Assembly: GCA_028710985.1 (NCBI GenBank) | Contig: JAQTTB010000001.1 | Location: 88,021 to 152,020 of the forward strand | Length of the DNA stretch: 64,000 nt | Direction of reading: 5' to 3' | Source of the DNA: Patescibacteria group bacterium | GTDB taxonomy: Bacteria > Patescibacteriota > Patescibacteriia > JAHJFT01 | Shown here: piece by piece, positions 5,860-51,387 of the stretch | How the letters are laid out: each line of letters opens with the position of its first letter | Position numbering within the stretch: position 1 is the first letter of the stretch | Notes under the pieces: model-generated | What the model was told of the DNA's origin: nothing | The model's database searches: none | The model's input: only the letters and a program-made list of their open reading frames with translations | Program-made: the position numbers and the translations under genes

Positions 5860-5888
5860 ACATTAATTCAAAATTAAAAATTCAAAAT

Positions 5889-7061
5889 TCAAAATTTTTC
5901 TTCACTCTCACCCAGGGTCACTGATACTATTTCAGTCTTCCCATCTCGCAATATCCCTAAGCTTATTTTATCACCTGGCGCGTATTCAAGCAAAAGATAC
6001 GCGAGCGAACCACGGCTGTTCAAGATTACGTCATTGAGCGATAAAATAATATCGCCCTCCCGAATTCCGGCGGCCTCGGCCGGAGAATCCGCCACAACCG
6101 CCGGCGGCACATCATCCTTGCCCGGCCATACGAGCGCGCCCTCTTTCTGCCCGGCCGTAATCTCGTCGTCAATTCCGGAAATCCTTGCAAGGTCGAGGTA
6201 CCGGACTCCGAGAAGAGGCCGCGTAATCCTTCCCTCCTTCAACATACTCTTCATCGCCGGAGTCAAGAGTTCGAACGAAAGACCAATCCCGCCCTCGGCA
6301 TCCTTGCCCCAAACGAGACCGATGACTTCGGCTTCGTAATTCAAGATCGGCGCGCCGAGCGGCGCGCCTCCCGCCGCAATAAGCAGCCGATTCGCCGGCG
6401 TGTCAGAATTCTGAAGATAAGTCGTTACGCCTGACGGATCATAGAACTTGCTTACGATATTTGATGAAATAAATTCATCCCGCCCGAACACGATCGCGAT
6501 CCGATCGCCGGAATCCATGAATTCTTCATCCGCAATCTGCACAACCGCGAGATTTTGAGCTGTAATTTTTACAAAAGCTGCGCCGGTTGTTTTATCGATC
6601 AGCATGCTGTCCAATGAATAAATGCTGCCTCCGATTTTGGCGAGTGCATTTCCAATTTTGGTATTTTTAAAAATTTCACCCGGCGCGATTAGCCATCCGT
6701 CCGAAGTAAAAACAACGCCATATCCAAGAATGTCGGTATCAAAATAAATTCCATCTTCAACCGCCTTGCCCGATTTCGTGGTATAGAAAACCGCGAGCGC
6801 CGGTATCACCCTCTCTCTGGCATTCTCTACCGCCGATTCAAAAGTCCCGGGCGAAACAAGCCGCGCCGTCGGGCTCGTAACGCGGGCAACCGGCTGCTCT
6901 ACCAGGCTGGAAAAATAATCTGATAAATACCCAAACGCCAAAAGCGCCCCGGCCGCACCTGCCACAATGCCGATTATCGCAAAAAGCGCCGTCCGGAACG
7001 TAAAGTGCCACAAACTCGGCTTTGTCGCCGCGGCTTCAGGTTCTTTTTTGACTTCATCCAT
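5889..7061 (-). CDS. HtrA-like trypsin-fold plus PDZ protein with an N-terminal transmembrane anchor. All three catalytic-triad positions appear substituted (LIAPGEIF where the His motif sits; AGGAPLGAP where GNSGGPL sits), so it is a probable pseudoprotease.
   Basis: Collinear with the bona fide HtrA at 18216..19496. PDZ segment: GIREGDIILSLNDVILNSRGSLAYLLLEYAPGDKISLGIL. Confidence 0.55.
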   Translation of the reverse strand: MDEVKKEPEAAATKPSLWHFTFRTALFAIIGIVAGAAGALLAFGYLSDYFSSLVEQPVARVTSPTARLVSPGTFESAVENARERVIPALAVFYTTKSGKAVEDGIYFDTDILGYGVVFTSDGWLIAPGEIFKNTKIGNALAKIGGSIYSLDSMLIDKTTGAAFVKITAQNLAVVQIADEEFMDSGDRIAIVFGRDEFISSNIVSKFYDPSGVTTYLQNSDTPANRLLIAAGGAPLGAPILNYEAEVIGLVWGKDAEGGIGLSFELLTPAMKSMLKEGRITRPLLGVRYLDLARISGIDDEITAGQKEGALVWPGKDDVPPAVVADSPAEAAGIREGDIILSLNDVILNSRGSLAYLLLEYAPGDKISLGILRDGKTEIVSVTLGESEEKF

Positions 7062-7126
7062 ATTTTTATATATTTTAATCTATAACCTACAAGCTACAAG
7101 CTAACTTCCTACAAGCTAATTCCTCG

Positions 7127-7888
7127 TCACGTCCAGCGCGCCGTTACGGCCACCAGGAAAAAAATTAATCCGCCAATAAGCGCGTAACGCTTGACCATTC
7201 GCGCATCAAGCTCATGAGAGAAGTGATAGCGCAGCAGGCCGGCTGTAAAATAATATAGTATGGTAAGCATTGCGCCGGAAACCACGAAAGCGGTCGGCAG
7301 CAGCATCAGGACGTAAAAAAATTCAAAAACCGTGAGCGTCAAAACCAGATTATAGGGCCAGCTTTCCCAAAAATTTACTTTCATAATTCGAAAAAGCTGA
7401 TAATTTAAAATCAGCGTAAGTGCGGCGATAATCGCAAGTAGCAGCGGTTTTGGCGCATGAAGAAAAATGTAAAAACCAAAAAGACTCGCTGAAAAAAGAA
7501 ACACCGAAAGAACAGTAAAGTAAAAACAAAGATTTTCCAACGCCCCCTCCTGATATCTTTTTTCCAGATAACCGTGATAAAAAAGATGCTCGGTGTATAG
7601 AAAGATCAAAAAACCTATCAATGCCGCCGCCACGATCTTGATTATCTGACTTTCAAGAAAAAGATTAAAGGCGAATCCGGACAGAAAAAGAAAAAGCGGA
7701 GTAATCAGATTGTGAAAAAAACTGGCGCTGAACCGCAGGTCGTTAAGTAAAAAAACCGCAGCCGCAATCAATAAACTCAAAAAAACAAGAAGCGGCCAAA
7801 TGAGCACCGGCGCCGCGAGAATAATGAGAAATCCGAAAACCGTGATTGTTCCAAGAATATACGGGCAGAAACGCCGTAATAGTAACAT
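7127..7888 (-). CDS. Polytopic integral membrane protein with about eight transmembrane helices; function unknown.
   Basis: Almost entirely hydrophobic 253-aa ORF in the same operon as its neighbours. Confidence 0.4.
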   Translation of the reverse strand: MLLLRRFCPYILGTITVFGFLIILAAPVLIWPLLVFLSLLIAAAVFLLNDLRFSASFFHNLITPLFLFLSGFAFNLFLESQIIKIVAAALIGFLIFLYTEHLFYHGYLEKRYQEGALENLCFYFTVLSVFLFSASLFGFYIFLHAPKPLLLAIIAALTLILNYQLFRIMKVNFWESWPYNLVLTLTVFEFFYVLMLLPTAFVVSGAMLTILYYFTAGLLRYHFSHELDARMVKRYALIGGLIFFLVAVTARWT

Positions 7889-10257: not shown

Positions 10258-10707
10258 ATGCCCGCCATCAGTATCAACAAAAAAGGCCTGCACAATTACG
10301 AAATCCTGGAACGCTTCGAGGCCGGCATTGTTTTATCCGGCCAGGAGGTTAAATCCGTAAAAGGCGGCCAGATGCACCTGGACGGCGCCTATGTCCGCGT
10401 CCGCGGCGGCGAGGCCTGGCTCGTTGGCGCCGAAATCCCAAAATACCGCTTCGCCGGCCCTCTGCCGGATTACGACGCCCAGCGCACCCGCAAGCTCCTG
10501 TTCCGCAAGCGGGAAATCCGTTATTTAACCGGAAAAACCCAAGAAAAGGGGTTGACACTCGTGCCGGTTTCAGTGTATACTTCACGAAGTAAAATTAAGT
10601 TGGAAATCGGGCTGGCGCGTGGCCGGCAAAGCCATGATAAGCGCGATGTAATGAAAGAACGCGATGTCAAGCGCCAAATTGCCCGAGCCCTTAAAAGGGG
10701 GATGTAA
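10258..10707 (+). CDS. smpB: SsrA-binding protein SmpB.
   Basis: GQEVKSVKGGQMHLDGAYV ... RTRKLLFRKREI ... KIKLEIGLARGRQSHDKRD. It lies directly upstream of the tmRNA gene. Confidence 0.9.
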   Translation: MPAISINKKGLHNYEILERFEAGIVLSGQEVKSVKGGQMHLDGAYVRVRGGEAWLVGAEIPKYRFAGPLPDYDAQRTRKLLFRKREIRYLTGKTQEKGLTLVPVSVYTSRSKIKLEIGLARGRQSHDKRDVMKERDVKRQIARALKRGM

Positions 10708-11087
10708 AAGAATCGATAGGAGATCCTTTCATTGGATGCGAACCAAGGGCGGCCCGAACCTTGCAAATCCTCGGCCAATCAACAAATGCCAATTTCATGG
10801 CGAGAGTGAAGAGCGCTTTCAGCGTTCCTTCATTCCAAATGGCTATCGCATAAAATCGATGGCCCATCCGACCCGGTTAAGCTTGCTCACCGGGAGCCGG
10901 GTGTCATATCTGCAAGCTCGGCTCCTGCCGCTGCTCGCGGCCGGAACTTAAACAACCCAGAGCTCGTTTCGGTGTAATTTTGTCGGATTTCCTACCATCG
11001 AAATTAAAAAATCAAATCCGGACATGTTCGTAGAATTCCAATGGATCGGCTCACTAGACAGGGGTGCGATTCCCCTCATCTCCACCA
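10698..11087 (+). ncRNA. ssrA: tmRNA (ssrA), standard one-piece form.
   Basis: 5' end GGGGAUG...GAAUCGAUAGG is tRNA-like. 3' end GGGGUGCGAUUCCCCUCAUCUCCACCA gives a T-arm plus acceptor strand. The acceptor pairs GGGGAUG with CAUCUCC, including a G3-U70 Ala identity pair. Length about 390 nt, adjacent to smpB; the 5' end overlaps the smpB stop. Confidence 0.65.
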
Positions 11088-11217
11088 AACAGTTCATGCA
11101 GCCAAGAGTATTCAATATTTATCGATCGGGGTATTAATAGTAGTCCAAGGAATCGCACGGGCGCGAGAGTCCCGACGAAATGTCGGGACGGTGCGCAGCG
11201 CCCCGGACCCCGAGCGG

Positions 11218-11250
11218 AGCGAGGGGCGATTCCCCTCATCTCCACCAATT
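11218..11250 (+). repeat. Direct duplicate of the tmRNA T-arm, 3' acceptor strand and CCA (23 nt identical: GCGATTCCCCTCATCTCCACCAA). It lies 135 bp downstream of the intact 3' end, the arrangement expected for an att site.
   Basis: Compare 11066-11088 with 11226-11248. Confidence 0.6.
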
Positions 11251-11262
11251 CCAATAATACCG

Positions 11263-11814
11263 ATGAGAATATCAAGAAAAAGATACAAAAAACCGGTTAA
11301 TATCGAACCCCAGTATTTTTATAACGAAAAAATCCGCGTGCCCGAAATCATGGTCATCGCGGAAGACGGCCAGAACCTCGGCGTCATGCCAACCCATGAA
11401 GCAATCCGCATCGCCGCCGAACGGGAACTCGATGTTGTGGAGGTTAATCCCAAGGCCGTTCCGCCGATTGCGAAAATAATGGATTACGGCCAATTTAAAT
11501 ACCAAAAAGAAAAAGAATTCAGAAAACTGCGCGCCGGAGCCCACCGCGTGGAAGTAAAAGGTATCCGCCTTTCCGTGCGCATCAGCGACCATGACCTTGC
11601 CATACGGTGCGAACAGGCAAAAAAATTTCTTGACTCCGGCGACCGCGTAAAAATTGAGATACTTCTGCGCGGACGCGAGAAACAGCATCCCGAACTCGCC
11701 TTTGAGCAGGTCAGCGAATTTATCAATCAGCTTTCGAACGTAATAAAATTAAAAATTGAACAACCGGCGACGCGCCAGGGAGGAATGGTAACCGCGCTTG
11801 TTACAAAAACTTAA
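11263..11814 (+). CDS. infC: Translation initiation factor IF-3.
   Basis: NEKIRVPEIMVIAEDGQNLGVM ... KGIRLSVRISDHDLAIRCEQAKKFL ... IKLKIEQPATRQGGMVTALV. The track ORF 11041.. reads through the tmRNA 3' end, so its first 74 codons are rejected. A non-AUG start further upstream is possible. Confidence 0.8.
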   Translation: MRISRKRYKKPVNIEPQYFYNEKIRVPEIMVIAEDGQNLGVMPTHEAIRIAAERELDVVEVNPKAVPPIAKIMDYGQFKYQKEKEFRKLRAGAHRVEVKGIRLSVRISDHDLAIRCEQAKKFLDSGDRVKIEILLRGREKQHPELAFEQVSEFINQLSNVIKLKIEQPATRQGGMVTALVTKT

Positions 11815-25226: not shown

Positions 25227-25688
25227 TTAAGACTGCGCCGCTGTCCGCTCCGCGTTGCACAAATTCCGAAATTCTTCGGAACTAAGATACCGGCAATAAT
25301 TAACATTAAGTTCTATCCCGAGATTCGTGTAACAGTCGTCGCGCAGCGCCGGCGTAAAAATCGCCCGGCAGAGATCAATATTTTTATCTTCATACGCGAT
25401 TCCCAGATTTATTTTGTCCCCGCAGTCGCGCCGCGCCGCCAGGTCGGAAATGGACTCGCACTTCGCCGCGTCGCGCGCCCGCCGCGCTTCCATAAATATC
25501 GTTGACCATTCTTCGGTATAAGTAATTTCCGCGGCCGGCGGCTCTTGGGTTTGATTTGTAACTTGAACCTCCGCCGGCAGCTCAACGCTTGCGGCTTTTT
25601 GTTTTAAATAAAATCCCACGCTAAAAGCCAAAAATCCAAAAGCCAGCGCCAGAACCGCGATTATAATAATATTTTTATAATTCATCAT
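25227..25688 (-). CDS. Small N-terminally anchored Cys-containing hypothetical protein.
   Basis: ATGATGA overlap with the stop of the giant gene. Transmembrane segment IIIIAVLALAFGFLAFSVGFYL. Confidence 0.35.
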   Translation of the reverse strand: MMNYKNIIIIAVLALAFGFLAFSVGFYLKQKAASVELPAEVQVTNQTQEPPAAEITYTEEWSTIFMEARRARDAAKCESISDLAARRDCGDKINLGIAYEDKNIDLCRAIFTPALRDDCYTNLGIELNVNYCRYLSSEEFRNLCNAERTAAQS

Positions 25689-28600
25689 AGGCAGATTGGC
25701 GCTGAACAGGCGCAGTTGTTCTCACAGAATATTGAATTAAATACATTTCTAAGAACCGTCCGCGCCTCGGTTTCATTAGAATAATAATTCGCAATCGCGC
25801 CACTTCCCCAACTATCCCCAAAACTTATGAGACTACCATAGCTATAGATTGAATCTTCGAGTCGTGTCCAATTGCTAGGAGCTGACGTGCTGCGCGAGCA
25901 GTTTGAACTTTCTTCTCGTTTGGAAATTAAATAAAGTCTCGGTTTTTCATTTTGAGGAAATTCTTTAAAATAAACCTTGAGGGCGTTCATCGCGTCATTG
26001 TCAGCGTTCGTCCATTGCCCATTCAATGGTGTATTGCTATCAATCACCACCACGAGCCGCAACGCGCCGGTCCGCCATTCATGACCGGCCACCACGTCCA
26101 CGACCGCGCGCGCCCATGACGGCGTTTCATTTAATCCGGTAAAATGCCCGTCGGCCTGACAGTTGCCCAAATCGGACGCCCATTCCCTGCCGCACAAATC
26201 ATGGCTCGAAAGCCCCCCATAGGGTTCCAGCTCGACACTATGGAAATCTTTAAGTTTTCCGCCGATTGGAATTATGTTATCAATACAGCCTTCGATTTCG
26301 GCGGCCACGTCAGATTCATATAAAATATATTTAAAAGAGTTATTTTCATTTGCCAGATAGAATGTTTTTTTAATATCATAGTAAGGAAATCCAGAAATCG
26401 TATAATCAATCAACGGACAAATCATCTTTACATTATTCATAGTATCGCATGTCTTAACGTCAACTGAGTAGCTGGTCATGGTTGTGATAAAGACCGCATC
26501 AACTTTTCCGTCAAAATTTGCGATTCCCCAATCGCATTTTTCTCCATCGGCCTGGTCTTGGTTGCCGTCGCCACAGTATGGTGCATAAGCCGTGCAGGAA
26601 GCATTGCAATAGCGGTCAAACATATCGTTGTAATCGGGCGTGTTGTTCACCCCGGAATCGCAAACCTCGCCCTCGTTTTCAATTACCTTGACGCAACGGC
26701 TGCGCGTCGCGGGGTCTTCACAACGGTAGCAATACCCCAATGACAGCGTGCTATCGCCGGATTGTGCGCAGACTTGATCACCCGGACATGAGGCATCGGA
26801 AACACATGCCTGTAATGGATGTTCAAGCCCCCAATAAGCCTCTCCTTCTTCAGTCCCCGGCACCGGCGGATAAGGAATGCTCTGAATAATCGCATCGCCG
26901 CAGCGCGGACTCTCGCGCTTGGCAATGTGGCAGGTTGAATCGCAATACTCGGCGTTATAACCATAATCACCCGGCGCCTTTGGTGCGATGGCCGGCACAT
27001 GCCTATAAGAAATATTCTGCCCCTGGCAGACTCCTTCGTCATAACCCAAACCTGAAGTCGGTGCCATGCCTTCCCCATAAACAAACCCGCCCGGAGTAAT
27101 TGAGGTTAAAACATTAGGACACGCGTCCGCAGCATATGGATCGCATGATATATAGCCTTCCATTGGGTGATAATTGCCCGAGGTCCCCAGGGTCGGATAC
27201 CAGCAGGCAATCGGACCCTCGTCGCATTCCTCAATTCCCTCTTCTTTTATTCCGTCGCCGCAATAATCACCGGTCACGGTCGCAAATCCGCAATAGTCGG
27301 TGCAGAACGTGCAGGTATCGCCGTAGCGCGGCGTGCACGCTGTGCCATTTGCCGAACCCGCGTCGCAGGCTTCAATGCCCGCGTACTGATAACCGTCGCC
27401 GCAGCGCGATACGCGGCAGGAAACCGCAGTATCGTTTTCCCGGCCCGAAATAATGATGCAGCCGTCGGTGTTATCCGTATTGCCGTCGTCGCACTGTTCA
27501 ACGCCCTCAAGTATGCCGTTGCCGCAAACCCCGTCCGTCACGCAGCTCATGCCCCACGAATTCCATTTACAAGCATCGCTCGCGCAGGTACGCACGTATT
27601 TTAACTGATAGCCAGTACTCGGGTCGATGCCACATGGCAGATTACAGGACGTAAACGATTGTTTGACGCGGTACTCGCAATCCCCATAAGTAATATGATG
27701 GCTGCCAAACGTACAGGTCTCAAGCGTTCCCGGCCAATAATAGCCGGCCGACGATCCGGGACAATTTTCATCCGTGGTACATTTCATCTCCGGATAATAG
27801 CGGCAAACACCATCAGTTGTTTCTTGATGGTCATCGCCTTCGCACTGTTCTTCAGGCTGTAAAATATCATCGCCGCACATCGGACCCGGCACGCGGCAAT
27901 CCCAGCTGCAGCCCGAATCATACTGCCCATTCAAAACTCCGCGGTCGCATTGTTCGGCTCCGGCCATCATTGCGTCGCCGCAATATGCCGCGCTGCCCGC
28001 GCAGTCCGCGCTGCAATGTCCGTATTTTCCGTTATTTGACCCCTCGTCGCACGCCTCGCTCATAAAACAGAATGCGCCCGGGCAGTCGGTATCGCGCTGG
28101 CAGAGCAGGCCGTCAGACGCACCGCCCATGCAGAATCCTTCGCGCACGCCGTTGCCGCAAGCCGGGAGTGAATCCGCGCATTCGCCGTATCCGGATTCGC
28201 CCGAGACCGCCCAGCGGCACGCGCTCCCCTCTTTGACGCAGGAAACCGGCCGCGAGCTCGCCCCGGTGCAGCTTACAAATTTTTTGTCGCCGAGTTCGCA
28301 CTCTTCATCCGGACCGCGCACGCTGTCGCCGCATAAATTATCGTTTGCAAAAGTATTATTCGCGCAGCCCTGGTTCAGAGTTAAATGCGCGGGCAAAGAT
28401 TCCGGAGTCCAGTAATTCGGAAATTCAAGCGATGCGAGCAGTTCGTAATCTCCGGCGCCAAGCGACCGGTATTGATATACCAGGGATTCGGCCGGGCAGA
28501 AGAACCGGAGGCCCGTCGCGTCAAAGCAAGTCGCGCTGTCATAGCCCTCGCCGCAGGCCGCGAATTTATTGACCGGATCAACCGGTAAAACCTGGCCAAG

Positions 28601-31600
28601 CGCGCCGCCGAGCTCAATCTTCCATGACGGCCAGAGACTCGTGGAAAGCGACCGGAGATACGAGCCCGACGCCAAGGCCGGCATGCCGCCGCTCATTGCT
28701 TTATATGATTCAAAACTCGCCTCTAGCGACATGAGATCCGTAATCCTCTTAGTGTCGCGCCGCAGTTTGTCTTTATCCGCGTCGCAGGCCGAACGCGGAT
28801 TTGTCGCAAGACAGTCCAGATTACTGGTGCAGGAAATTATCTTTCCGTCCTCGCTCCGCAAAAAATCGCCGAATTCGTTGCGGCAAACGCGCGCATTATT
28901 TACATTGTCATAGTTCAATACGAAATTATTAAGCATCTGATTAAAAATGCCGACTGTCATTTCGTTCGCGCCTTCGTTGCGCGATAGTATATAAATATTA
29001 GTGAAAAGCGCCGGATCGCCGAATTTATTTGCTGCATTAATATACACGCTCGTGCCGACGCGCACTGCCGGATAACCGTCAACCTCCATTACCTCCGGTT
29101 CGCCGCCAAAGCCCTGGCTCCGATACCACTCTTCAGCCGAAAGATGGCTGGGATTCGGCATAACGCGGAGACCGATGGCGTCGCGCGCCCAAGCCGCGGC
29201 TGGATCCGAATTTTTATAAACCAAAAGATAATCTCTAAGCACCCCGGCCGGCGGAGATTCAACCCTCTTCACCTCCAGCTCGGGCAAAAGTTCGGGCGCG
29301 CTGTCGCGACAATAAGTAGTGGCGAAATGAAAATCAGTCGGATCTGCAAAAATCAGCCACGGATTTTCGCAAAGATTGACCATCGCGGTTACCGAATCGG
29401 TCACCGTCTCGCCGGCGCAGCGGCCCGGCGCAATTTCCGACTCCCCAACGCATAAATTTCGCGGGCAGTCCGAATCACGGGCGCATGCTTTTCCAAAAAA
29501 ATTATTAATTGTAACCTTAGCCTGCGCGCTCACCTGCTCTTCGCCGTTTAGTCCGGCCGGCGTCACCATCTGATCCGCGGCGTCGCTTGTTGTAACGTTG
29601 ACTATATTTTTATCAGTCGTCGTATCGTCTGGAATTGCCGAAGCCCAGCTCCATTCCCATTCGTATTGGCCGGGCGTTTCCTGAATCGCCGTAGGTGAAA
29701 GTCCGGCGCGCCGGCTCACTGCGAGCGCGGAAAAACTCCGCGCGCCATGCGGCTCTTCGAGGCTCGCCGCGTCTTTGGTGTCAAAGAAAAAATCTTCTTC
29801 CGGATCGGCGATGTAAACATAATCAAGTTTGCAAATTTCCGTGCCCGTGCCGAAATAACTGGCGTAATAATTATTCAACGCCACGCCGTCAACCGATTCA
29901 ACGGCTTCTAAAACCCTAATTTGGTACCATGTATCCGATTCTAAAGTTCCTTTATATCTATAATAAACCGATTTACCATCGGCCGAGAGCTCAACTGCGC
30001 CGTCAACGATATCTCCCTCGCAATAATTCAGCGTTTCCGGATCCGGCGTTTCCGGCGCCCGCGCCTGGGCAAATCTGCCCGTAATACCCGCGAATAAATT
30101 TTTAAAACTCTGCCATACGGCACGCCACCACGGCAGATAAGCATCGGCGCGCGTCACAAGCACGGATGTATAATTCACTTCTCCGGCATTACAATTTTGC
30201 GTTTTACCTTTTAACAAAATTATCCGGTTTTTTGTCGTCCCGCCTTGATCGTATTTTAACGAAGCGGCATTCAAAGCCTGCGAAAAATCAATTTTCACCG
30301 CGGCGTTGCGGCATTGATCGTTTGAACTGTTCGCCGGAATCACGGCCGAAACCCGCGGCATGGGATAACAACATGAATTATCCGCAAGTCCGAGCTCCGG
30401 ATCGATGGCGCGGCATTCAGCATCAGTCGTGAATCCGCAAAGAATTGTAAAATTAGCAGTTCCGGTTTTTTCCTCAGTCGCTGCGAAAATTTCCGTTGCC
30501 TGATTGCCCTGTTCATTAACTTCCCCGCGGCCAACCGCCTCGGCGACCTGAACCGGATCAGCGAGTCCGTCACCGTCCACGCTCTCGCAACCCGCCTCTT
30601 CGCCCGTCCCAACCACGCCGTCGCCGCAAAATGACGACATCGCGTATTCTCCCGATGAACCGAGCGCCAAACAATTTTTGCCGCATCCCTGCCTACCGGC
30701 AGGCAGGCTTTCGCCGCCGTCGCAATCCTCTCCCTGTTCCTTGAGGCCGTTGCCGCAGCAATTTGCGACCGTCGGATCGGAGCAGGGATAGGTACCTTCA
30801 TTCAGACACTTATCCGAACAGCCGTCGCCCGAACGCGGCCGGCATTGAGAGTCGCCGATACCCGCGCATTCAAGATTGGAACGGCACGTGGTTCTCATGT
30901 CCGCGCAAATTTTTCCGTTGTCGCAATCCTCACCGAGTTCGCGCTCCGCCGTACCGTTGCCGCAAACTGCGAGCGGTCCAGAATCCGAACCTTCGTTCAA
31001 GCATTCACTTGAGCAGCCGTCGCCGTTCCGACGGTTCATATCGTCGCAATCCTCACCGTCTCCCAAATCCCCGTTGCCGCAAACCGAACCGGCGAGCGTC
31101 GCTCCCTCATTCTGGCAGCCTTCGGAGCAGCCGTCGCCGGAAATATTATTGCCGTCATCGCATTCTTCGTGGCCCGTAATCCAGACGTTGCTCCATGGTG
31201 AAATATATGTCGGATCGTCAATATCTGCGTTTCCACAGGTGCCGCCCGACGCAACCGTCTCCACCGCTTCCCTGAGACACCGCGCCGAACAACCGTCGCC
31301 AACCAAAATATTTTTATCATCGCATTCCTCACCCATCGATATTTCGACATTGCCGTTGCCGCAAACCGCGATATTCATTCTTGAACCCAAGTGCAAACAA
31401 TTTGACTTGCCGCACCATGCCGAAACGCTTGCCGGCGCCGTATCAATCATTCCGGCCGCAAGCAACCGCCCGACATCCTCGTCTCCCGACGACCAGCCCC
31501 AGTTGTAGCCCCACGGATCCAGGCTCTGGCCCTTGGCACTGCATTCATCCGCTTCGCCATAAGGCACGGCCGAATACTGTACTCGCTCCCCCTGGCCACG

Positions 31601-34600
31601 CGTTATTCCGTTGACCGGCGCGACTTCAACACGATCAATGGCGCAAAGCTCAGGCGTATCCTTTGTCCTAAATATCCACGAAAAACTCTCGCCGTAATTT
31701 AAACCCGTCAGGCTCGTGTCGGTATAACTCTTAATTTGATCTGACAAAATTACCCGGTAATACGTTTTTTGTTTGAATACGGCATGATTCACCACAATTT
31801 CTTCCCAGGTTGACATGTCAACCGCGGACACGCCGGTTACGAGATTGCCGCCCGCGAATGAACGGCAATTTTCATTCTCGCATTCCAGAATCTGAATGTT
31901 TCCCGGAGCCATGAGCGAATCCGCGTCCATAAGTGTATTAAAACCAATGCGCACCCCGGCGTTGCGGCAAGCCTCGGTGCAGTTCGGTTCGTAGAAAATC
32001 ACCGTCGGATCAGTAAAATCGATCACCAGCTCTCCGACGCCACTCTTACCCTCCGCTTCCGCGGAGATCGAAACCGGTTCGCCGCGCGTTTCGGTGAGCG
32101 GCAAAACTTCCGCGAGCCAATCACTTATCGGATCCGGCACCGCAATCTGCGCTTTTAAAATATCACTTGCCGACCAGAGCCAGTCATAACCGCTCGGATT
32201 TAGGACAAGACAAATATCATCTGATGAAACCGCGGCCGCGGCATACGGAATCGAATCCTTGGATTTCGCAATTTTGTAATCCGGCGTAACCGCGACTTGT
32301 CCCAAAGCGCACGGCTCACTCGTCGCGCGGGTCTTCCATGAATAGCAATATGCAAAACCCTCACCGCACGCCGAACGCTCTTCCATATTTAAGTTTCCGA
32401 CACTCGCATCACCGCGAAGCGCGGTCGCGAGCTTAACCTCATAAACGCTTGATGAATCAAGCGCCGACGCGGGCAAAATCTGGAAACCCCGGTTGTCGCC
32501 AAGCGCGTTAATTTTTGACGTTTCAACATCAACCGTGGCTGAACATGGATCATCCGCGCCAGCTACGCATTTATAAAATTTAATATTTTCGGTCGTAAAC
32601 CTCGCCGTATCCATGGGCACATTAAATCGCACTGTCGGTACGGCATTGACGCAGGCCTCGCCGCTCCGCGCATCCCAGGGCGACGGCGATGCCGGCAAAT
32701 CCTCGGCCGCGCAGGATTCAATTACCTGCGGCGTAATCGGGATAATTCCGGTTGAAAAACGCCACACGAAAGACGCCTCGCGCGGGCCGACCGCGCATTC
32801 CTCATCCGCGCCGCGGCAGGTGCCGTCGGCGCAGCACTGTTGATCCGCGTCGCAGGCCGCCGGCTCGTCAAGACAGTTCTCAACCCGGAAATTTATGCCG
32901 TTTGACGGCAATCCTCCGGATGAAGTCGCGACCACCGGACCGGTCGCCGCGCCAGCGGGCACAACGGATGATATTTCAGTGTTTGACCATGCATTGATTT
33001 GCGCGTTTTTCAAATTATAAAACATTACCGAACCGGCCGAGCCGCCGAGCCGTTCGCCAAAAATAACAACCGCGGTTCCCGCCGGACCGGCGCTTGGCGA
33101 AATTCGGCAGACTCCCGGCGCGAGCGCCGCTGTCGTCACCGTGAACGCGGCCGCGTCGCTTGTTTTGGCGTCAGAACGCGTCACGCGTATTTCATGCGCG
33201 CCGGCCGATACCGCTCCGCCGTCCGCGTATGCGGCCGGCACTTTAACCGTAATGCTGTCCGCCATCCAAAAATCCGTGCCGCAGGCTTCGGGAAAATTAA
33301 AATCCCCGAGCGCTGATTGGCCCGTGGATGTATTTATAAAAGTCACTTTACCGACCGACGAACCAAAATTACTGCCGCGCAGCGTCACATACTCGCCGAT
33401 CGGACCCATAGCCGGACTCACTTCCGCGATCACCGGTTTGCCGCTGAGCCCCCGCTCGACAACTTGAAAATCTACTCCATTTGAAGAAACTCCCCCGACC
33501 GAAACGCGCACCGGATATTCACCTTCCCCCATCGGCGGAATAGTCGCGCGCACGGCTCCGGCCGCCCACGACTCAATCCGGCCGGCCGGCACTTCGCCGA
33601 CCGTTACCGCGCCTTCAGCCTCACCGAATCCCGAACCCGAAATTGAAATCGCATCGCCGGCTTCTCCCTGGTTCGGATTTATTTCACAGATGCCCGGACG
33701 CGCTATCGTATTCACGAGAAAATCCGCCACCACCGGTCCGCGGGTATTGTCCGTGGTGTCTGCTTCGCCGGCCAATGATACAACTTCAATCGGGCCGCTT
33801 GGCGCTGCCGCCGGGACAGTTATAATAATTTGATTATTTGACCAGACGCTCGTGCATGCCGCAAGCGGAGCTTCAATCTCATCCCCTTCGGCAGCGGCTC
33901 CCAAAAATCTTACTGTTCCGCGCGCAACTCCAAAATATTGACCCGCAATCGTGACAAGCGTACCGGGTGCGCCGTCCAGGGGATCAACACCTTCAATGAG
34001 CGGAAGCGCAACGCAAATTCCGCCCTCGCAATAACCGGATGAACATTCTTCGCTCATAGTGCAGGTTCCACCGGCGCAGGAACCGCAGTATTCCGCGCTC
34101 CCCGAATCCTCACCGCAATCAATGCCGGTCTCTTCGCTATCACGCACGCCATTAAAACAATGTTCAGCCCGAGCAACTACGGAAACCGATTCCGATGTTC
34201 CGCTATTGTCGTCAATATCATAGGCCCGCGCCTGAACCGAATGCCGCGAACCGAGCTCAAGGCCGGTCGTATCCCAGTCAACCTCGGCAGTAAAATTCAT
34301 GGGCGTCGGCGAAGGCGGCCCGTCGCTTGACCAAAGCGCGCCATCAACATCAAAATCCACGACCGAAACCCCGGCATCGTCCGTGGCCTCGGCCTGAAAA
34401 GTTATTATTGAATTTACCGGAATGCCCTGACCGTTATCTGGATAATTTAAAACAACATTCGGACCGGTTACGTCCACGAGATTGCCGGTTGAAAATGAAC
34501 CTTCGCATATCGCGCCGAATCCGCTGCAGCTCACATACATTCCGCCCGAACTCCGAAGTCCGGTCGCTATCGAAACGCGGTATTCAGTATCCGCGTCAAA

Positions 34601-35302
34601 GCATTTTTTACTCTGGTTCGGATCCGGGCACGCCGCGTCCGGCACAAAAATCACCTTGTTTCCCGCCGCGCTGAACGCACCTTCAACGCGCGTGCCATCT
34701 GCTGCGCGCGCGACTGTAATATTCCGCTCAATCGTTCCCGCGTCAACCGCGGCGTTGAATAAAATTCTGATCGCAACATTGCGGATTGGCACCGCGCCCT
34801 GCGGACTCATGCTTTCAACCTGAAATGTTCTTGTTACGCCGCCGGGGATTCCGCCTCCGCCCGGACCGGTCGGACCGGCACCCTCCTCAACCCCGGTTGC
34901 CCGGAGCAATGAATTCAGTACAAACTGAGAAATCGCAAAAGATGTCAGAATGATCGCAAGCCCGATCACCGCATTGGTCAAAACCTTTTTCGCGTTTCCA
35001 ACCTTTTCTTCGTCTCCGCCGGCCGTCATCCACAAAAATCCGCCATAAAGCACAAAGATCAGCGCGATAATACCGAGTAGACCAAGAGCGATGTTGATAA
35101 TTCTCGCGACAATCACGCGGATATCTCCGCCGCCGAGCTGGATCTCCTCTGCCACCGGCTCAATCCCCACGTCTACCGCCAAAACCGCATGCATGAACGA
35201 CAAAATGCTAACCGCAGTTATCAAAAAAATACCCGCCAAAACAAAACTTTTGACTTTTGACTTAGACTTTTGACTTTTGACTTTTGACTTTTGACTTTTC
35301 AT
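25685..35302 (-). CDS. Giant (3205 aa) cell-surface protein. It has an N-terminal signal/transmembrane segment plus a two-helix pilin-like membrane module, a Gly-rich linker, and then Ig-like domains, IPT/TIG-like domains and many Cys-rich repeats of the CGNGxxExGEECDDGNxxxGDGCSxxC type.
   Basis: Single uninterrupted ORF. N-terminus MKSQKSKVKSQKSKSKVKSFVLAGIFLITAVSIL...DIRVIVARIINIALGLLGIIALIFVLYGGFLWMTAGG...KKVLTNAVIGLAIILTSF. Repeated V-x-P-x-x-G...FS.PMD Ig-like blocks. At least 15 CxxGxxxxGEECD repeats. Confidence 0.8.
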   Translation of the reverse strand: MKSQKSKVKSQKSKSKVKSFVLAGIFLITAVSILSFMHAVLAVDVGIEPVAEEIQLGGGDIRVIVARIINIALGLLGIIALIFVLYGGFLWMTAGGDEEKVGNAKKVLTNAVIGLAIILTSFAISQFVLNSLLRATGVEEGAGPTGPGGGGIPGGVTRTFQVESMSPQGAVPIRNVAIRILFNAAVDAGTIERNITVARAADGTRVEGAFSAAGNKVIFVPDAACPDPNQSKKCFDADTEYRVSIATGLRSSGGMYVSCSGFGAICEGSFSTGNLVDVTGPNVVLNYPDNGQGIPVNSIITFQAEATDDAGVSVVDFDVDGALWSSDGPPSPTPMNFTAEVDWDTTGLELGSRHSVQARAYDIDDNSGTSESVSVVARAEHCFNGVRDSEETGIDCGEDSGSAEYCGSCAGGTCTMSEECSSGYCEGGICVALPLIEGVDPLDGAPGTLVTIAGQYFGVARGTVRFLGAAAEGDEIEAPLAACTSVWSNNQIIITVPAAAPSGPIEVVSLAGEADTTDNTRGPVVADFLVNTIARPGICEINPNQGEAGDAISISGSGFGEAEGAVTVGEVPAGRIESWAAGAVRATIPPMGEGEYPVRVSVGGVSSNGVDFQVVERGLSGKPVIAEVSPAMGPIGEYVTLRGSNFGSSVGKVTFINTSTGQSALGDFNFPEACGTDFWMADSITVKVPAAYADGGAVSAGAHEIRVTRSDAKTSDAAAFTVTTAALAPGVCRISPSAGPAGTAVVIFGERLGGSAGSVMFYNLKNAQINAWSNTEISSVVPAGAATGPVVATSSGGLPSNGINFRVENCLDEPAACDADQQCCADGTCRGADEECAVGPREASFVWRFSTGIIPITPQVIESCAAEDLPASPSPWDARSGEACVNAVPTVRFNVPMDTARFTTENIKFYKCVAGADDPCSATVDVETSKINALGDNRGFQILPASALDSSSVYEVKLATALRGDASVGNLNMEERSACGEGFAYCYSWKTRATSEPCALGQVAVTPDYKIAKSKDSIPYAAAAVSSDDICLVLNPSGYDWLWSASDILKAQIAVPDPISDWLAEVLPLTETRGEPVSISAEAEGKSGVGELVIDFTDPTVIFYEPNCTEACRNAGVRIGFNTLMDADSLMAPGNIQILECENENCRSFAGGNLVTGVSAVDMSTWEEIVVNHAVFKQKTYYRVILSDQIKSYTDTSLTGLNYGESFSWIFRTKDTPELCAIDRVEVAPVNGITRGQGERVQYSAVPYGEADECSAKGQSLDPWGYNWGWSSGDEDVGRLLAAGMIDTAPASVSAWCGKSNCLHLGSRMNIAVCGNGNVEISMGEECDDKNILVGDGCSARCLREAVETVASGGTCGNADIDDPTYISPWSNVWITGHEECDDGNNISGDGCSEGCQNEGATLAGSVCGNGDLGDGEDCDDMNRRNGDGCSSECLNEGSDSGPLAVCGNGTAERELGEDCDNGKICADMRTTCRSNLECAGIGDSQCRPRSGDGCSDKCLNEGTYPCSDPTVANCCGNGLKEQGEDCDGGESLPAGRQGCGKNCLALGSSGEYAMSSFCGDGVVGTGEEAGCESVDGDGLADPVQVAEAVGRGEVNEQGNQATEIFAATEEKTGTANFTILCGFTTDAECRAIDPELGLADNSCCYPMPRVSAVIPANSSNDQCRNAAVKIDFSQALNAASLKYDQGGTTKNRIILLKGKTQNCNAGEVNYTSVLVTRADAYLPWWRAVWQSFKNLFAGITGRFAQARAPETPDPETLNYCEGDIVDGAVELSADGKSVYYRYKGTLESDTWYQIRVLEAVESVDGVALNNYYASYFGTGTEICKLDYVYIADPEEDFFFDTKDAASLEEPHGARSFSALAVSRRAGLSPTAIQETPGQYEWEWSWASAIPDDTTTDKNIVNVTTSDAADQMVTPAGLNGEEQVSAQAKVTINNFFGKACARDSDCPRNLCVGESEIAPGRCAGETVTDSVTAMVNLCENPWLIFADPTDFHFATTYCRDSAPELLPELEVKRVESPPAGVLRDYLLVYKNSDPAAAWARDAIGLRVMPNPSHLSAEEWYRSQGFGGEPEVMEVDGYPAVRVGTSVYINAANKFGDPALFTNIYILSRNEGANEMTVGIFNQMLNNFVLNYDNVNNARVCRNEFGDFLRSEDGKIISCTSNLDCLATNPRSACDADKDKLRRDTKRITDLMSLEASFESYKAMSGGMPALASGSYLRSLSTSLWPSWKIELGGALGQVLPVDPVNKFAACGEGYDSATCFDATGLRFFCPAESLVYQYRSLGAGDYELLASLEFPNYWTPESLPAHLTLNQGCANNTFANDNLCGDSVRGPDEECELGDKKFVSCTGASSRPVSCVKEGSACRWAVSGESGYGECADSLPACGNGVREGFCMGGASDGLLCQRDTDCPGAFCFMSEACDEGSNNGKYGHCSADCAGSAAYCGDAMMAGAEQCDRGVLNGQYDSGCSWDCRVPGPMCGDDILQPEEQCEGDDHQETTDGVCRYYPEMKCTTDENCPGSSAGYYWPGTLETCTFGSHHITYGDCEYRVKQSFTSCNLPCGIDPSTGYQLKYVRTCASDACKWNSWGMSCVTDGVCGNGILEGVEQCDDGNTDNTDGCIIISGRENDTAVSCRVSRCGDGYQYAGIEACDAGSANGTACTPRYGDTCTFCTDYCGFATVTGDYCGDGIKEEGIEECDEGPIACWYPTLGTSGNYHPMEGYISCDPYAADACPNVLTSITPGGFVYGEGMAPTSGLGYDEGVCQGQNISYRHVPAIAPKAPGDYGYNAEYCDSTCHIAKRESPRCGDAIIQSIPYPPVPGTEEGEAYWGLEHPLQACVSDASCPGDQVCAQSGDSTLSLGYCYRCEDPATRSRCVKVIENEGEVCDSGVNNTPDYNDMFDRYCNASCTAYAPYCGDGNQDQADGEKCDWGIANFDGKVDAVFITTMTSYSVDVKTCDTMNNVKMICPLIDYTISGFPYYDIKKTFYLANENNSFKYILYESDVAAEIEGCIDNIIPIGGKLKDFHSVELEPYGGLSSHDLCGREWASDLGNCQADGHFTGLNETPSWARAVVDVVAGHEWRTGALRLVVVIDSNTPLNGQWTNADNDAMNALKVYFKEFPQNEKPRLYLISKREESSNCSRSTSAPSNWTRLEDSIYSYGSLISFGDSWGSGAIANYYSNETEARTVLRNVFNSIFCENNCACSAPICL
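35271..35298. repeat. Heptanucleotide tandem repeat (TGACTTT on the plus strand, AAAGTCA in the coding sense), four perfect units plus imperfect flanking units. It starts within codons 2-10 of the giant gene.
   Basis: gacttttgacttttgacttttgacttttgacttttcat. The unit length is not a multiple of 3. Confidence 0.7.
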
Positions 35303-37105
35303 CTATCGTTGCTTTACCGGAAAACTCTGACAGGCTCCGGTTGAACGTGAATTTGACGGCTGTTCATCGCAACACCACGGTGCTCCATCCCGATCCTTGG
35401 GACAACCGGGCGTCGCGGCCGGGCTGAAACAATTTTGATAAACATCTTTAACGTCAGAAAATATTTCCGGATAATATTCGGTTTCTTCAAGGAATAAACC
35501 GTGGCGCATACTGGTCAGCGTATGATGAGGAACAAGTTCTCCTTCGGCCGCAAGACCGTCTTCAGTCAAATTCTCGGAATCAAATGAATACCAGATCGCA
35601 AACTCATCTTCCTGATTATCTCCGAGCAGAATATTGGATGAATTCAAACCCGAAAAACTCATGAGCGTATCCCAGATAATTTCAACCGGCAAATCCGGCG
35701 CTACCACGCCTTCGCCGGCTGAAGGATTTACCGACACCACCGACGGCGGTTCAATCAGCACGTTATCCGTCGTTCTGAAAGTCCAAAGATAATTGTCCGT
35801 TGATGGCCCTTCGGCCGTGCCGTTGCCGTTTCCGTCAAGAGAATTGCCCGCCATATCAACCACGCCGTTATACGGGAATATCGCGGCCGGCGCCTCATCC
35901 GACGCCATGCTTGCCGCCTTGACCGTCACGCCAATGTCCGCGTTCCCCGGCAGGCAGAATACCTCTCCACCGCATGAATTAGTGCCGCAAGACTCATCCG
36001 ATAAAAATTCCACAGTTTTGTATTCATTGGAAATGCTGAATGTGCCGAGAATAATTCCGCCGCCCTCGGCCATGAGATTGCTGAAGCGACTCGTATGGCC
36101 GGTCGCGGATGTCGGGTCCACCGGTTCGGAAAAATTAATCTGAATAACCACGTTTTTGGGATATTCCTCGCTCGCGCGCGGGAATACGCTTCTTACTTCC
36201 GGCGGCGTCAAATCCACAAAAGTGCTCACCTGAAAATTCCACTGGTAACCGTCGCTCATTGAGCCCTGAAACGCATCATCACCCTCTGCATCTTTGATAT
36301 TCGGCCCGAGCGAAACGGTATAGGAAACATTTTCACTCGCCGAACCGAGCCACTCGACGGGCTGAAAAACAAAAGTTTTCAAATCGTCCGTGAACCGCAC
36401 GCACGCGCCGGTTTCGCGAAGCGCGCTTCCCTCTCCGTCGGCCGTCCTGTATATCTTGACGTTCGCGCCGTTAAGCAAGTCACTCGCCGTGTCGTCGCTC
36501 ACATCAAGCGGCGTATCATTGTCATCGTAGCCGGAAATAAACGATTCAATGGACATTTCTTTTTTAAAAGTCACGAGTATCCTGGTATTTCGCGGAATAT
36601 CGGTCGCCCCGCGCGCCGGATAATGATAGCTGATCACGCCGTTGCCAAGCGCGCTTGAGAACTGCTCGTATGTCGCCGGCGGCCCGGACGGCCCGCCTCC
36701 GGGACCAAAAATTCCGCCCTCACCCAAGAGCGCGGAAAATACAAAATAGGTAATCGCCCAGGACATAAGAATGATTGCAAGCCCGATCGCCGCGTTGGTC
36801 AAAACCTTTTTCGCTTTTTCTACCCTTTCTTCAACTCCGCCGGCCGTCATCCATAAAAATCCTCCGTACAGCGTGAGAGACAAAGCGATCACCGCGAGCA
36901 AACCGAGAGCGACATTGATAATCCGCGCGACAATCACCCGGATATCGGTCTGCGACGCGCCGATGGCTTCGCCGACCGGCTCCAAACCCACATCAACCGC
37001 TCCGACTATCGTCGGAGTCGCGAAAATAAAAAAGAACGCAAAGCTTATTACTAAAACAAATATAAGCCTCGCGTTCTTCTCGAAATTTTGTTTTCCTTTC
37101 CGCAT
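35303..37105 (-). CDS. 600-aa paralog of the giant protein's N-terminal region: the same pilin-like two-helix module and Gly-rich linker, followed by about three Ig-like domains.
   Basis: AVDVGLEPVGEAIGASQTDIRVIVARIINVALGLLAVIALSLTLYGGFLWMTAGG...KKVLTNAAIGLAIILMSW aligns residue-for-residue with the giant protein's N-terminus. Its stop codon abuts the giant gene's ATG. Confidence 0.75.
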   Translation of the reverse strand: MRKGKQNFEKNARLIFVLVISFAFFFIFATPTIVGAVDVGLEPVGEAIGASQTDIRVIVARIINVALGLLAVIALSLTLYGGFLWMTAGGVEERVEKAKKVLTNAAIGLAIILMSWAITYFVFSALLGEGGIFGPGGGPSGPPATYEQFSSALGNGVISYHYPARGATDIPRNTRILVTFKKEMSIESFISGYDDNDTPLDVSDDTASDLLNGANVKIYRTADGEGSALRETGACVRFTDDLKTFVFQPVEWLGSASENVSYTVSLGPNIKDAEGDDAFQGSMSDGYQWNFQVSTFVDLTPPEVRSVFPRASEEYPKNVVIQINFSEPVDPTSATGHTSRFSNLMAEGGGIILGTFSISNEYKTVEFLSDESCGTNSCGGEVFCLPGNADIGVTVKAASMASDEAPAAIFPYNGVVDMAGNSLDGNGNGTAEGPSTDNYLWTFRTTDNVLIEPPSVVSVNPSAGEGVVAPDLPVEIIWDTLMSFSGLNSSNILLGDNQEDEFAIWYSFDSENLTEDGLAAEGELVPHHTLTSMRHGLFLEETEYYPEIFSDVKDVYQNCFSPAATPGCPKDRDGAPWCCDEQPSNSRSTGACQSFPVKQR

Positions 37106-43757: not shown

Positions 43758-43884
43758 TCGAACCTTAGCACGAATAGCCGTAATTTGTCAAGACCAGCGC
43801 CTCTCTTGACCAACCCGCGCATATACTATAATATATATAATCAAACCGCAATTTTGAATTTTTAATTTTGAATTTTTAATTTTT

Positions 43885-44982
43885 GTGTCTCTTCCCGAAA
43901 AAGCCTACTGGGTCGCTTTTGGCCAAATTTCACGCCTCACGCCCGTAAGGTTCAAAAAAATTATTTCCTACTTCCCGTCGCTTGAAACCGCCTGGTTTGC
44001 AAGCCGCGACGAATTTCATCGCGCCGGCCTGGATCAGGAGGCGGTGGATGATTTTTTTATTAAACGCTCCACCCTGAATCCGGCCGAACTCTGGCAAAGG
44101 GTGGTTGACGAGGATATCGCCGTCGCGACAATTAATGATCCAAATTATCCGGCCATACTTAAAGAAATCTATGATCCGCCGCCGTTTCTTTATTACCGCG
44201 GCAATCTTGAAAATCCGGACGAATTCCGCCTTGCCGTGGTCGGCACAAGAAAAACCTCGCCCTACGGACGACAGGTCGCCGAAGAACTAGTGCGCGATCT
44301 CGCGGTGCAAAAACTCTGCATCGTGAGCGGGCTCGCCCTTGGCATCGATTCTCTTGCCCATGAAGCCGCTCTTTCGACCGGTGGCCGCACCATCGCCGTG
44401 CTCGGCTCAGGCCTGGACCGCGCAAGCATCTATCCGCATACCAACCGTCGCTTAGCTGAACGCATCGTTGATTCCGGCGGCGCGGTCGTCTCCGAGCTGC
44501 CGCTTGGTAGCCTCGCGCTCAAGCATCATTTTCCGGCGCGCAACCGCATCATCTCCGGGCTTGCGCTCGGCACGCTCGTGGTTGAAGCCGGCGAAGAATC
44601 CGGTTCGCTCATCACCGCCCGCGCCGCTCTTGACCAGGGACGCGAAGTTTTTGCGGTTCCGGGTCCGATTCATTCCCCGACCGCCGCCGGCCCGAACGCG
44701 CTTATTAAAATGGGCGCCCACCCGGTCACCGAATGGCGCGATATATTGGAAGCGCTGAATTTGAATCAGGTCAAAAATTATATTGAAAACCAGAAAATTC
44801 TCCCAGCCTCGTCCGAAGAGGAAAAAATCCTCGCCCTACTCACCCGCGAGCCAACTCACATTGATGCAATTATCAAACAATGCGGCATCCCGGCCGCCGC
44901 CGTGGCGGGCGCGCTTTCACTCATGGAAATGAAAGGCAAGGTGCGCAATCTCGGCGGAATGAATTACGTACTCGGGAGATAA
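43885..44982 (+). CDS. dprA: DNA-processing protein DprA (Smf).
   Basis: Rossmann block GTRKTSPYGRQVAEELVRDLA ... VVEAGEESGSLITA. GTG start. Confidence 0.85.
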   Translation: MSLPEKAYWVAFGQISRLTPVRFKKIISYFPSLETAWFASRDEFHRAGLDQEAVDDFFIKRSTLNPAELWQRVVDEDIAVATINDPNYPAILKEIYDPPPFLYYRGNLENPDEFRLAVVGTRKTSPYGRQVAEELVRDLAVQKLCIVSGLALGIDSLAHEAALSTGGRTIAVLGSGLDRASIYPHTNRRLAERIVDSGGAVVSELPLGSLALKHHFPARNRIISGLALGTLVVEAGEESGSLITARAALDQGREVFAVPGPIHSPTAAGPNALIKMGAHPVTEWRDILEALNLNQVKNYIENQKILPASSEEEKILALLTREPTHIDAIIKQCGIPAAAVAGALSLMEMKGKVRNLGGMNYVLGR

Positions 44983-51311: not shown

Positions 51312-51387
51312 CGCGGGGTAGAGCAGTTGGCAGCTCGCCAGGCCCATAACCTGGAGGTCGCTGGTTCAAGTCCAGCCCCCGCAACCA
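51312..51387 (+). tRNA. Initiator-type tRNA-Met (anticodon CAU) with the C1·A72 mismatch.
   Basis: CGCGGGGTAGAGCAGTTGGCAGCTCGCCAGGCCCATAACCTGGAGGTCGCTGGTTCAAGTCCAGCCCCCGCAACCA. Very close to E. coli tRNAfMet. Position 33 reads C rather than U. Confidence 0.75.

Follow-up and report, generated by a model that had tools for sequence, protein, structure and literature searches.

A heptanucleotide tract in the signal-peptide region of a giant patescibacterial gene: a plausible tolerated expansion with latent on/off capacity

Repeats that resemble the tract considered here have been described in several bacterial groups. The CTCTT coding repeat of opa in Neisseria, placed in the leader-peptide region, has a switching rate of about 1e-3 per generation (PMC3960869), and Haemophilus influenzae carries simple sequence repeats (SSRs) within open reading frames (ORFs), such as (AATTTTG)14 in hmw1a and (AACAACC)8-13 (PMC2651432). 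In Beggiatoaceae, Cyanobacteria and Bacteroidetes, TAACTGA heptamers immediately ahead of start codons have been proposed as translational regulators, and the same article refers to Mrazek 2007 for heptanucleotide repeats as the commonest class of long SSR (5-11 nt) in prokaryotes (PMC4679880). For units of 6-9 nt, at least three repeats serve as the cut-off for a putative phase-variable SSR (PMC5953494). The tract in question opens a gene for a 3,205-residue protein in a Patescibacteria group bacterium, a member of the Candidate Phyla Radiation (CPR), and lies in a 64,000-nt stretch (the window) covering positions 88,021 to 152,020 of contig JAQTTB010000001.1 in assembly GCA_028710985.1. An earlier note on this DNA had proposed it as a phase-variation switch. 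The reading we lean towards is a slippage expansion particular to this lineage, tolerated in the permissive n-region of a signal peptide and endowed with a latent ON/OFF capacity.

Read 5' to 3' on the minus strand, the gene begins ...CAACGA TAG ATG (AAAAGTC)x5 TAAGTC AAAAGTC AAAAGT TTTGTTTTGGCGGG... (Table 1). The run of five perfect units is the sole part of the tract with enough length and purity for slippage, and it accounts for codons 2-13. With the degenerate and distal units that follow, the full tract (35299-35246) spans 54 nt, or 18 codons, and specifies residues 2-19 of MKSQKSKVKSQKSKSKVKS; downstream of the terminal AAAAGT (35251-35246) the sequence continues as TTTGTTTTGG. Tandem Repeats Finder (TRF) assigns the tract a period of 7, 7.9 copies, 91% matches and a score of 94. 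A three-unit probe gave a single match, at the tract, and none in 100 dinucleotide-preserving shuffles. In any frame, AAAAGTC repeats are translated into the stop-free cyclic heptad K-S-Q-K-S-K-V (KSQKSKV). At least four perfect AAAGTCA units had been proposed for codons 2-10 of a 3205-aa ORF; the ORF is found as described, at 25685-35302 on the minus strand, with the 7-nt unit plainly at its 5' end, and the proposed units are the same tract in another register, five in number when read as AAAAGTC. The coding location stands, and the extent becomes codons 2-19 on translation. The tract is an in-ORF repeat of a 7-nt unit, not a multiple of three, and in this it has the anatomy of a contingency locus.

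What would slippage do to the reading frame? The locus was rebuilt in silico with 0-12 perfect units. With 2, 5, 8 or 11 of them the ORF stays full-length; every other number brings a stop after 8-38 codons. Alleles of 3, 6, 9 or 12 units read 8-29 codons before they meet the TAA in the degenerate unit, and those of 1, 4, 7 or 10 units read 17-38 before a stop. One unit gained or lost from the present five leads to stops after 15 or 24 codons, and the off-frame alleles have no upstream start in a different frame that could rescue them. In the simulation a one-unit change abolishes the full-length product and a restored number restores it, as expected of a contingency locus, and the predicted frameshift of the whole 9.6-kb ORF by one unit is borne out. 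The present arrangement is open because the degenerate unit is one base short: TAAGTC brings the insertion to 48 nt overall, a multiple of 3, where seven perfect inserted units (49 nt) would put the gene out of frame. A start codon downstream of the tract was considered and ruled out, since a signal peptide begun at the first in-frame candidates (TTG at +63 and others) would be devoid of positive charge, stripped of the positive n-region present in every orthologue.

Table 1. Positions of the repeat tract, of the genes around it and of the other heptamer arrays in the window.
Feature	Coordinates	Strand	Remarks	Basis
ATG start of the giant ORF	35302-35300	-	adjoins TAG stop (35305-35303) of upstream gene	
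Five perfect tandem AAAAGTC units, 35 nt	35265-35299	-		sequence, probe, TRF
Degenerate 6-nt unit TAAGTC	35259-35264	-	interrupts the tract	sequence, simulation
Distal perfect AAAAGTC (35258-35252) and AAAAGT (35251-35246)	35246-35258	-		sequence
Predicted Sec signal peptide, residues 1-42	35177-35302	-		translation and alignment, by eye
3,205-aa ORF (giant gene)	25685-35302	-	T4SS_pilin, Big_5, Big_7, four TIG stretches, DUF4215	
600-aa paralogue, NCBI MDD4994946.1	35303-37105	-	T4SS_pilin and Big_5; directly upstream of giant ORF	
AATTTTG/AATTTTT heptamer array	43850-43884	+	untranslated leader; abuts GTG at 43885 of dprA	
AATTTTG/AATTTTT heptamer array, imperfect	5865-5896	-	untranslated leader; abuts ATG at 5859 of a 208-aa Wzz-like gene	

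The protein context points to a place where such an insertion could be absorbed. The product of the giant gene looks like a membrane-anchored giant surface protein: its T4SS_pilin domain occupies residues 62-127 and contains two hydrophobic, transmembrane (TM) helices, and its DUF4215 match, at 24.4 bits, lies slightly under the Pfam gathering cut-off of 27. By inspection the N-terminus has the shape looked for in a Sec signal peptide, where a cationic n-region precedes a hydrophobic stretch of 15-25 residues and positions -3 and -1 hold small residues. The putative n-region is MKSQKSKVKSQKSKSKVKS, with 8 Lys; the h-region FVLAGIFLITAVSILSFMHAVLA runs into VLA/VDVGIEP, and this cleavage-type site (VLA/VD, the slash marking the cut) aligns with VLA/LE and VMA/LE of orthologues. 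From the signal-peptide shape and the orthologue alignment together, the repeat would therefore encode the cationic n-region of a surface protein's signal peptide.

The n-region of a Sec signal peptide is positively charged, variable in length and placed ahead of the h-region, and low-complexity insertions are tolerated there and in surface loops. Translated KSQKSKV heptads would merely lengthen this charged segment, where a secreted protein is about as tolerant of extra length and as favourable to charge as anywhere, and the insertion would be tolerated because n-region length and charge are permissive and the peptide is removed on export. A frameshift-prone site of five perfect units would then arise as a by-product, with 2, 5, 8 or 11 units leaving the gene ON and other numbers silencing its 9.6 kb reversibly. 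In this account we infer that the tract arose by slippage, that the signal peptide is cleaved and how fast the tract slips, a rate that at five units is probably low to moderate.

Comparison with orthologous loci suggests how the insertion could have come about. The order S26 signal peptidase, HisRS, YqeY, 600-aa gene, giant gene is conserved among related Patescibacteria in JGI, ENA and Logan assemblies, including a syntenic orthologue of 3,310 aa (L004/L005). From 17 related loci and a fragment (P0003), 11 distinct orthologous giant-gene starts were obtained, and the tandem repeat is absent from all 11. Conservation of the tract at the orthologous locus, usual though not strictly defining for contingency loci, is thus not seen. 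The n-region of each orthologue is short and bears 2-5 positive charges, as in MFNRRK, MLKKQR, MHKTYRK, MKNRANK and MKDYRTIFK, or MLFSRNK, MFKRYSK, MQKTKKK and MNKK, and the N-terminus in the window is about 10 residues longer. The simplest history would be an ancestral ATG AAAAGT TTT... into which 48 nt (6x7 + 6) were inserted. Such a recent slipped-strand expansion, of six 7-nt units and one 6-nt unit, would have started at the AAAAGT seed in codons 2-3; the terminal AAAAGT is the probable ancestral seed, to judge from orthologue N-termini such as MKDY.. and MKNR.., and the degenerate unit shows a tract already in decay. In one relative (L152, 3899-3970), degenerate CAAAAGT/CAAAAAT/TAAAATT heptamers lie untranslated in the spacer between the 600-aa and giant genes, a place equivalent to that of the repeat in the window.

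A DNA anchor just downstream of the tract found no match in JGI metagenome contigs, and a protein-guided scan of JGI recovered relatives at 70% identity or less, the window's own species being absent. The first 400 residues reached a best identity of 66% in the protein collection, with no N-terminus from the same species; the 90% cluster of the 600-aa neighbour has no other member, and no second strain is present in that collection. A related HisRS variant (P0084, SRR12594517) sits on a 2.7-kb contig that ends short of the locus.

The same heptamer occurs far beyond this gene. (AAAAGTC)4 is found in at least 120 loci of GTDB species representatives and, among the matches listed, mostly in Cyanobacteria and Bacteroidota. 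Because about 70% of the listed matches sit in open frames of fewer than 150 codons, these short-frame matches are probably intergenic. Ten of the listed matches are in CPR genomes. Eight of these ten lie in frame inside housekeeping enzymes of eight different genomes, where the insertion reads ..KSQKSKVKS..: a GHMP kinase, a MiaB-like radical-SAM enzyme, MiaA, a PBP transglycosylase, YchF, LeuRS, DnaX and a P-type ATPase (loci L015, L018, L022, L025, L026, L028, L055 and L093). The remaining two are in the 5' leader of rpe (L103) and in the leader of a type IV pilin-like protein of a Parcubacteria genome, MIKSQKSKVKSQKFSVG/FSLVETL (L119, plus strand, 6902-7441), whose N_methyl match is slightly under the Pfam cut-off. 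The CcmH signal peptide of a Chloroflexi genome (L014, 861-1496) has the tract as its n-region, MKNQKSKVKSQKSRPKILFLF.. Hydrophilic loops and the n-regions of signal or leader peptides are, on these sequences, recurrent permissive sites for the tract, and n-regions suit it in that their AAA/AAG-rich codons act as seeds and extra Lys and Ser are tolerated.

The pilin-like and CcmH genes are independent cases of an AAAAGTC repeat at the 5' end of exported proteins. Some genomes carry several (AAAAGTC)n loci, Aerosakkonema sp. BLCC-F183 many, and among the matches listed (L009-L128) filamentous Cyanobacteria, Chitinophagaceae and Saprospiraceae abound in tracts, which reach about 20 units.

Since four to five units stand in single-copy essential genes, a tract of this length is not ruinously unstable, and its presence does not imply a switch. 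For genome scans the lesson is that, outside the classical pathogens, a 5'-terminal repeat in a surface gene does not suffice as evidence of a contingency locus even when its unit is not a multiple of three, given that this heptamer also stands in frame in LeuRS, DnaX and further essential genes of these lineages. We do not think that the evidence shows the tract to be maintained by selection as a switch.

Several observations weigh against a merely tolerated expansion. The 5' end of a giant surface protein is the classic position of a contingency locus; the organism has a small genome and belongs to a group whose cultivated members are episymbiotic; the tract passes a PhasomeIt-type cut-off; and it is the only place where k=31 contigs break, in three sequencing runs, along about 25 kb of otherwise 100% identical sequence, exactly at the position (ATG+30) predicted for an allele of six or more units, where five units alone should not break. 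Neutral tolerance and use as a switch can also both hold.

Could the tract then be a true contingency locus, kept because gain or loss of a unit toggles the giant surface protein between OFF and ON? The locus would hedge a population, for example between host binding and recognition by phage or host defence, by a mechanism like that of Neisseria opa. This is a serious rival reading, though on balance rather unlikely. The unit length is not a multiple of three and the perfect units occupy codons 2-13 of a 3,205-aa surface protein; a one-unit change cuts translation short at 15 or 24 codons, and no other start codon makes good the loss; and five units exceed the minimum of three set for 6-9-nt units (PMC5953494). 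The opa CTCTT repeat offers a precedent in a leader-peptide coding region (PMC3960869), as do the frameshifting heptanucleotide SSRs within ORFs of H. influenzae (PMC2651432), and lifestyle, kind of protein and position all fit. The at-least-three cut-off, however, lacks specificity in this setting, since LeuRS and DnaX in other CPR genomes would be flagged by it too. Eight other CPR genomes carry the identical (AAAAGTC)4-5 tract in frame within essential genes, where it cannot be there to switch expression, and since it persists at the same length in LeuRS and DnaX, a tract this long is evidently neither very costly nor very unstable. The tract is missing from all 11 orthologous starts, it is interrupted and has five perfect units where opa has 7-28 and hmw 13-38, and literature searches found no SSR phase variation reported in Patescibacteria themselves. 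What the earlier note called the design of a contingency locus thus holds for anatomy and frameshift, for the cut-off and for the likeness to opa; the step to an actual switch is not supported, given the orthologues, the housekeeping genes and the short, interrupted tract.

Logan k=31 assemblies of three runs (SRR22315506, SRR22315508 and SRR22315509) contain the organism of the window and, one mismatch apart, match it at 100% identity over 4.4-4.7 kb on the upstream side and 13.9-20 kb on the downstream side. The upstream contigs stop within the tract, at ATG+30 in two runs and at ATG+29 in one (L001), and the downstream contigs of SRR22315506 and SRR22315508 begin with TC(AAAAGTC)4T, that is, with 30 nt of repeat and then the downstream flank. 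Missing from the contigs are exactly the purely periodic 31-mers. In a de Bruijn simulation a five-unit tract alone gives no break, an allele of at least six units, alone or mixed, gives the observed break at ATG+30, and a mixture of four and five units breaks at ATG+28, which is not seen in the data; another locus that shares the periodic 31-mers produces the observed break too. The breaks are therefore compatible with either length heterogeneity or k-mers shared with other loci. They sit exactly where a longer co-existing allele is predicted, but periodic 31-mers shared with other loci or organisms (the heptamer having at least 120 loci) explain them equally well, the one-base-shorter end of L001 hints at k-mer sharing, and no copy-number variant was directly observed in the k=31 contigs of the three runs. 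If other (AAAAGTC)>=5 or (AATTTTGAATTTTT)>=3 tracts are present on the 744,538-bp contig, the breaks would be explained with no polymorphism at all.

An alternative role would lie in translation initiation, an A-rich unstructured stretch after the AUG helping re-initiation at TAG-ATG and the loading of ribosomes. The tract forms an unpaired loop of about 66 nt in both the minimum free energy (MFE) and the centroid folds, no evident Shine-Dalgarno (SD)-like sequence precedes the start, and stop and start abut. The other heptamer arrays of the window suggest it too. The pattern A[AC]TTTT[GT] has 9 matches in the window against 0.13 expected, and all three arrays of this type, the giant-gene tract included, touch a start codon; start-proximal TAACTGA heptamers have been proposed as translational regulators (PMC4679880). 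Nevertheless, the fold energy around the start is not significant (z = -1.08), the tract lies on the coding strand in the orientation opposite to both tracts in 5' untranslated regions (UTRs), orthologues with similar stop-start coupling do without it, and compact genomes put nearly any intergenic tract near a start codon. The initiation role thus finds no specific support and is improbable.

The two untranslated arrays, at 5865-5896 and 43850-43884, follow the TAACTGA pattern of heptamers in an untranslated leader near a start codon, whereas the tract of the giant gene, downstream of its ATG and translated, falls outside it. Breaks occur at these arrays as well. A Logan contig (L158) ends in the dprA tract, at the point where an allele longer by 14 or 28 nt, or a shared k-mer, would end it, and at 5865-5896 one contig passes (L159, SRR22315508) and another ends within the array (L160, SRR22315509), an end that none of six simulated simple slippage variants reproduces. 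A plus-strand promoter with TTGACT repeats as -35 boxes was also considered and ruled out, with no matching -10 box and none in a promoter scan.

That the repeat is an assembly artefact, collapsed or invented, or that the start codon is wrong and the repeat belongs to the 5' UTR, is very unlikely: the exact count of five units comes from the metagenome-assembled genome (MAG) alone, since the k=31 contigs stop in the tract and do not traverse it, and the spacer of L152 has CAAAAGT-like heptamers at the equivalent place, but three independent runs give identical flanks whose periodic ends (at least 30 nt upstream, 29 in L001, and 30 nt downstream) require at least 35 nt of repeat, and starts downstream of the tract would leave no positive n-region, unlike every orthologue. 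The repeat is real because independent assemblies reproduce both its flanks and its ends, which disposes of the artefact that the earlier note had named as its own refutation.

The neighbourhood of the giant gene adds a likely mode of expression. The 600-aa and 3,205-aa ORFs share a frame with one TAG between them (35300-35305), and no promoter or terminator is predicted between the two genes. The TAGATG junction suggests co-transcription and translational coupling of both, because stop and start abut. Orthologous giant genes start 0-15 nt past the upstream stop, with TAAATG in L130 and L132 and an overlapping TGATG in L134, and the recurrence of such zero-spacer or overlapping junctions suggests that translational coupling of the two pilin-domain genes may be conserved. 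A read-through fusion of the two ORFs was ruled out, orthologues varying in both spacer and frame. The giant protein has no record in the protein collection or contig index, while its neighbours MDD4994944 and MDD4994946 do, as does MDD4994949 (locus tag PHW53_00495); the gap in the accessions suggests that MDD4994945 is the giant protein.

Elsewhere in the window, a 96-nt tandem duplication (1.9 copies, 86% matches, nested 18-nt repeats) lies at 2259-2441 in a GC-rich stretch (about 61%) near the left end. A tmRNA gene (10698-11087, 96 bits) overlaps with its 3' end a mechanically called ORF at 11041-11814, and there are five tRNA genes, including two for tRNA-Met at 51312 and 51761.

What would a switch at this locus mean? 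Every cultivated member of the CPR/Patescibacteria lives attached to a host cell (PMC11623550). Were unit number to toggle the gene, an ultra-small bacterium with few regulators would gain heterogeneity of the cell surface at the level of the population, and the giant protein would be marked as under fluctuating selection, for example through host attachment or exposure to phage. Tiny CPR genomes carry giant surface proteins of unknown function, and a stochastic repeat switch would be a new regulatory principle for the group. On the most ambitious version, which is doubtful, the Candidate Phyla Radiation would here have its first contingency locus of the simple-sequence type, and the AATTTTG/T tracts of dprA and the Wzz-like gene would join it in the small phasome of a genome with a main contig of 744 kb. 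If real, the mechanism would be translational SSR phase variation in a leader peptide, which is a known kind, and our literature searches found no report of it for this phylum.

Set beside the known systems, the tract is closest to opa. It shares with the Neisseria repeat a unit that is not a multiple of three, a place in the signal- or leader-coding part of the gene, translation in the ON state and slippage that shifts the whole ORF. In opa, however, 7-28 units code for the hydrophobic core, conservation of the repeat extends over paralogues and species, and the measured switching rate is about 1e-3, whereas the tract in the window encodes a cationic n-region, has five perfect units in one lineage and has a predicted capacity to slip. 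With Haemophilus it has in common 7-nt units at large adhesin and surface genes, and the versions that lie within ORFs likewise cause frameshifts: (AACAACC)n in TonB-dependent receptor genes, next to 7-bp repeats in hmw promoters (PMC2651432, PMC11475388). Haemophilus tracts, in contrast, have 6-38 units and vary among sequenced strains, while this one is known from one strain. The TAACTGA heptamers resemble it in their short arrays (two to six or more copies), many loci and frequent contact with start codons, and share with (AAAAGTC)n the phyla Cyanobacteria and Bacteroidota, but they are intergenic, on the coding strand and upstream of the AUG, where the tract in the window is within the ORF and translated. 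Tolerated n-region insertions, finally, offer the likeness of a charged n-region ahead of an h-region, with the KSQKSKV tract recurring in CcmH and in the leader of the pilin-like protein; they differ in being an argument from permissive sites and in having no named family.

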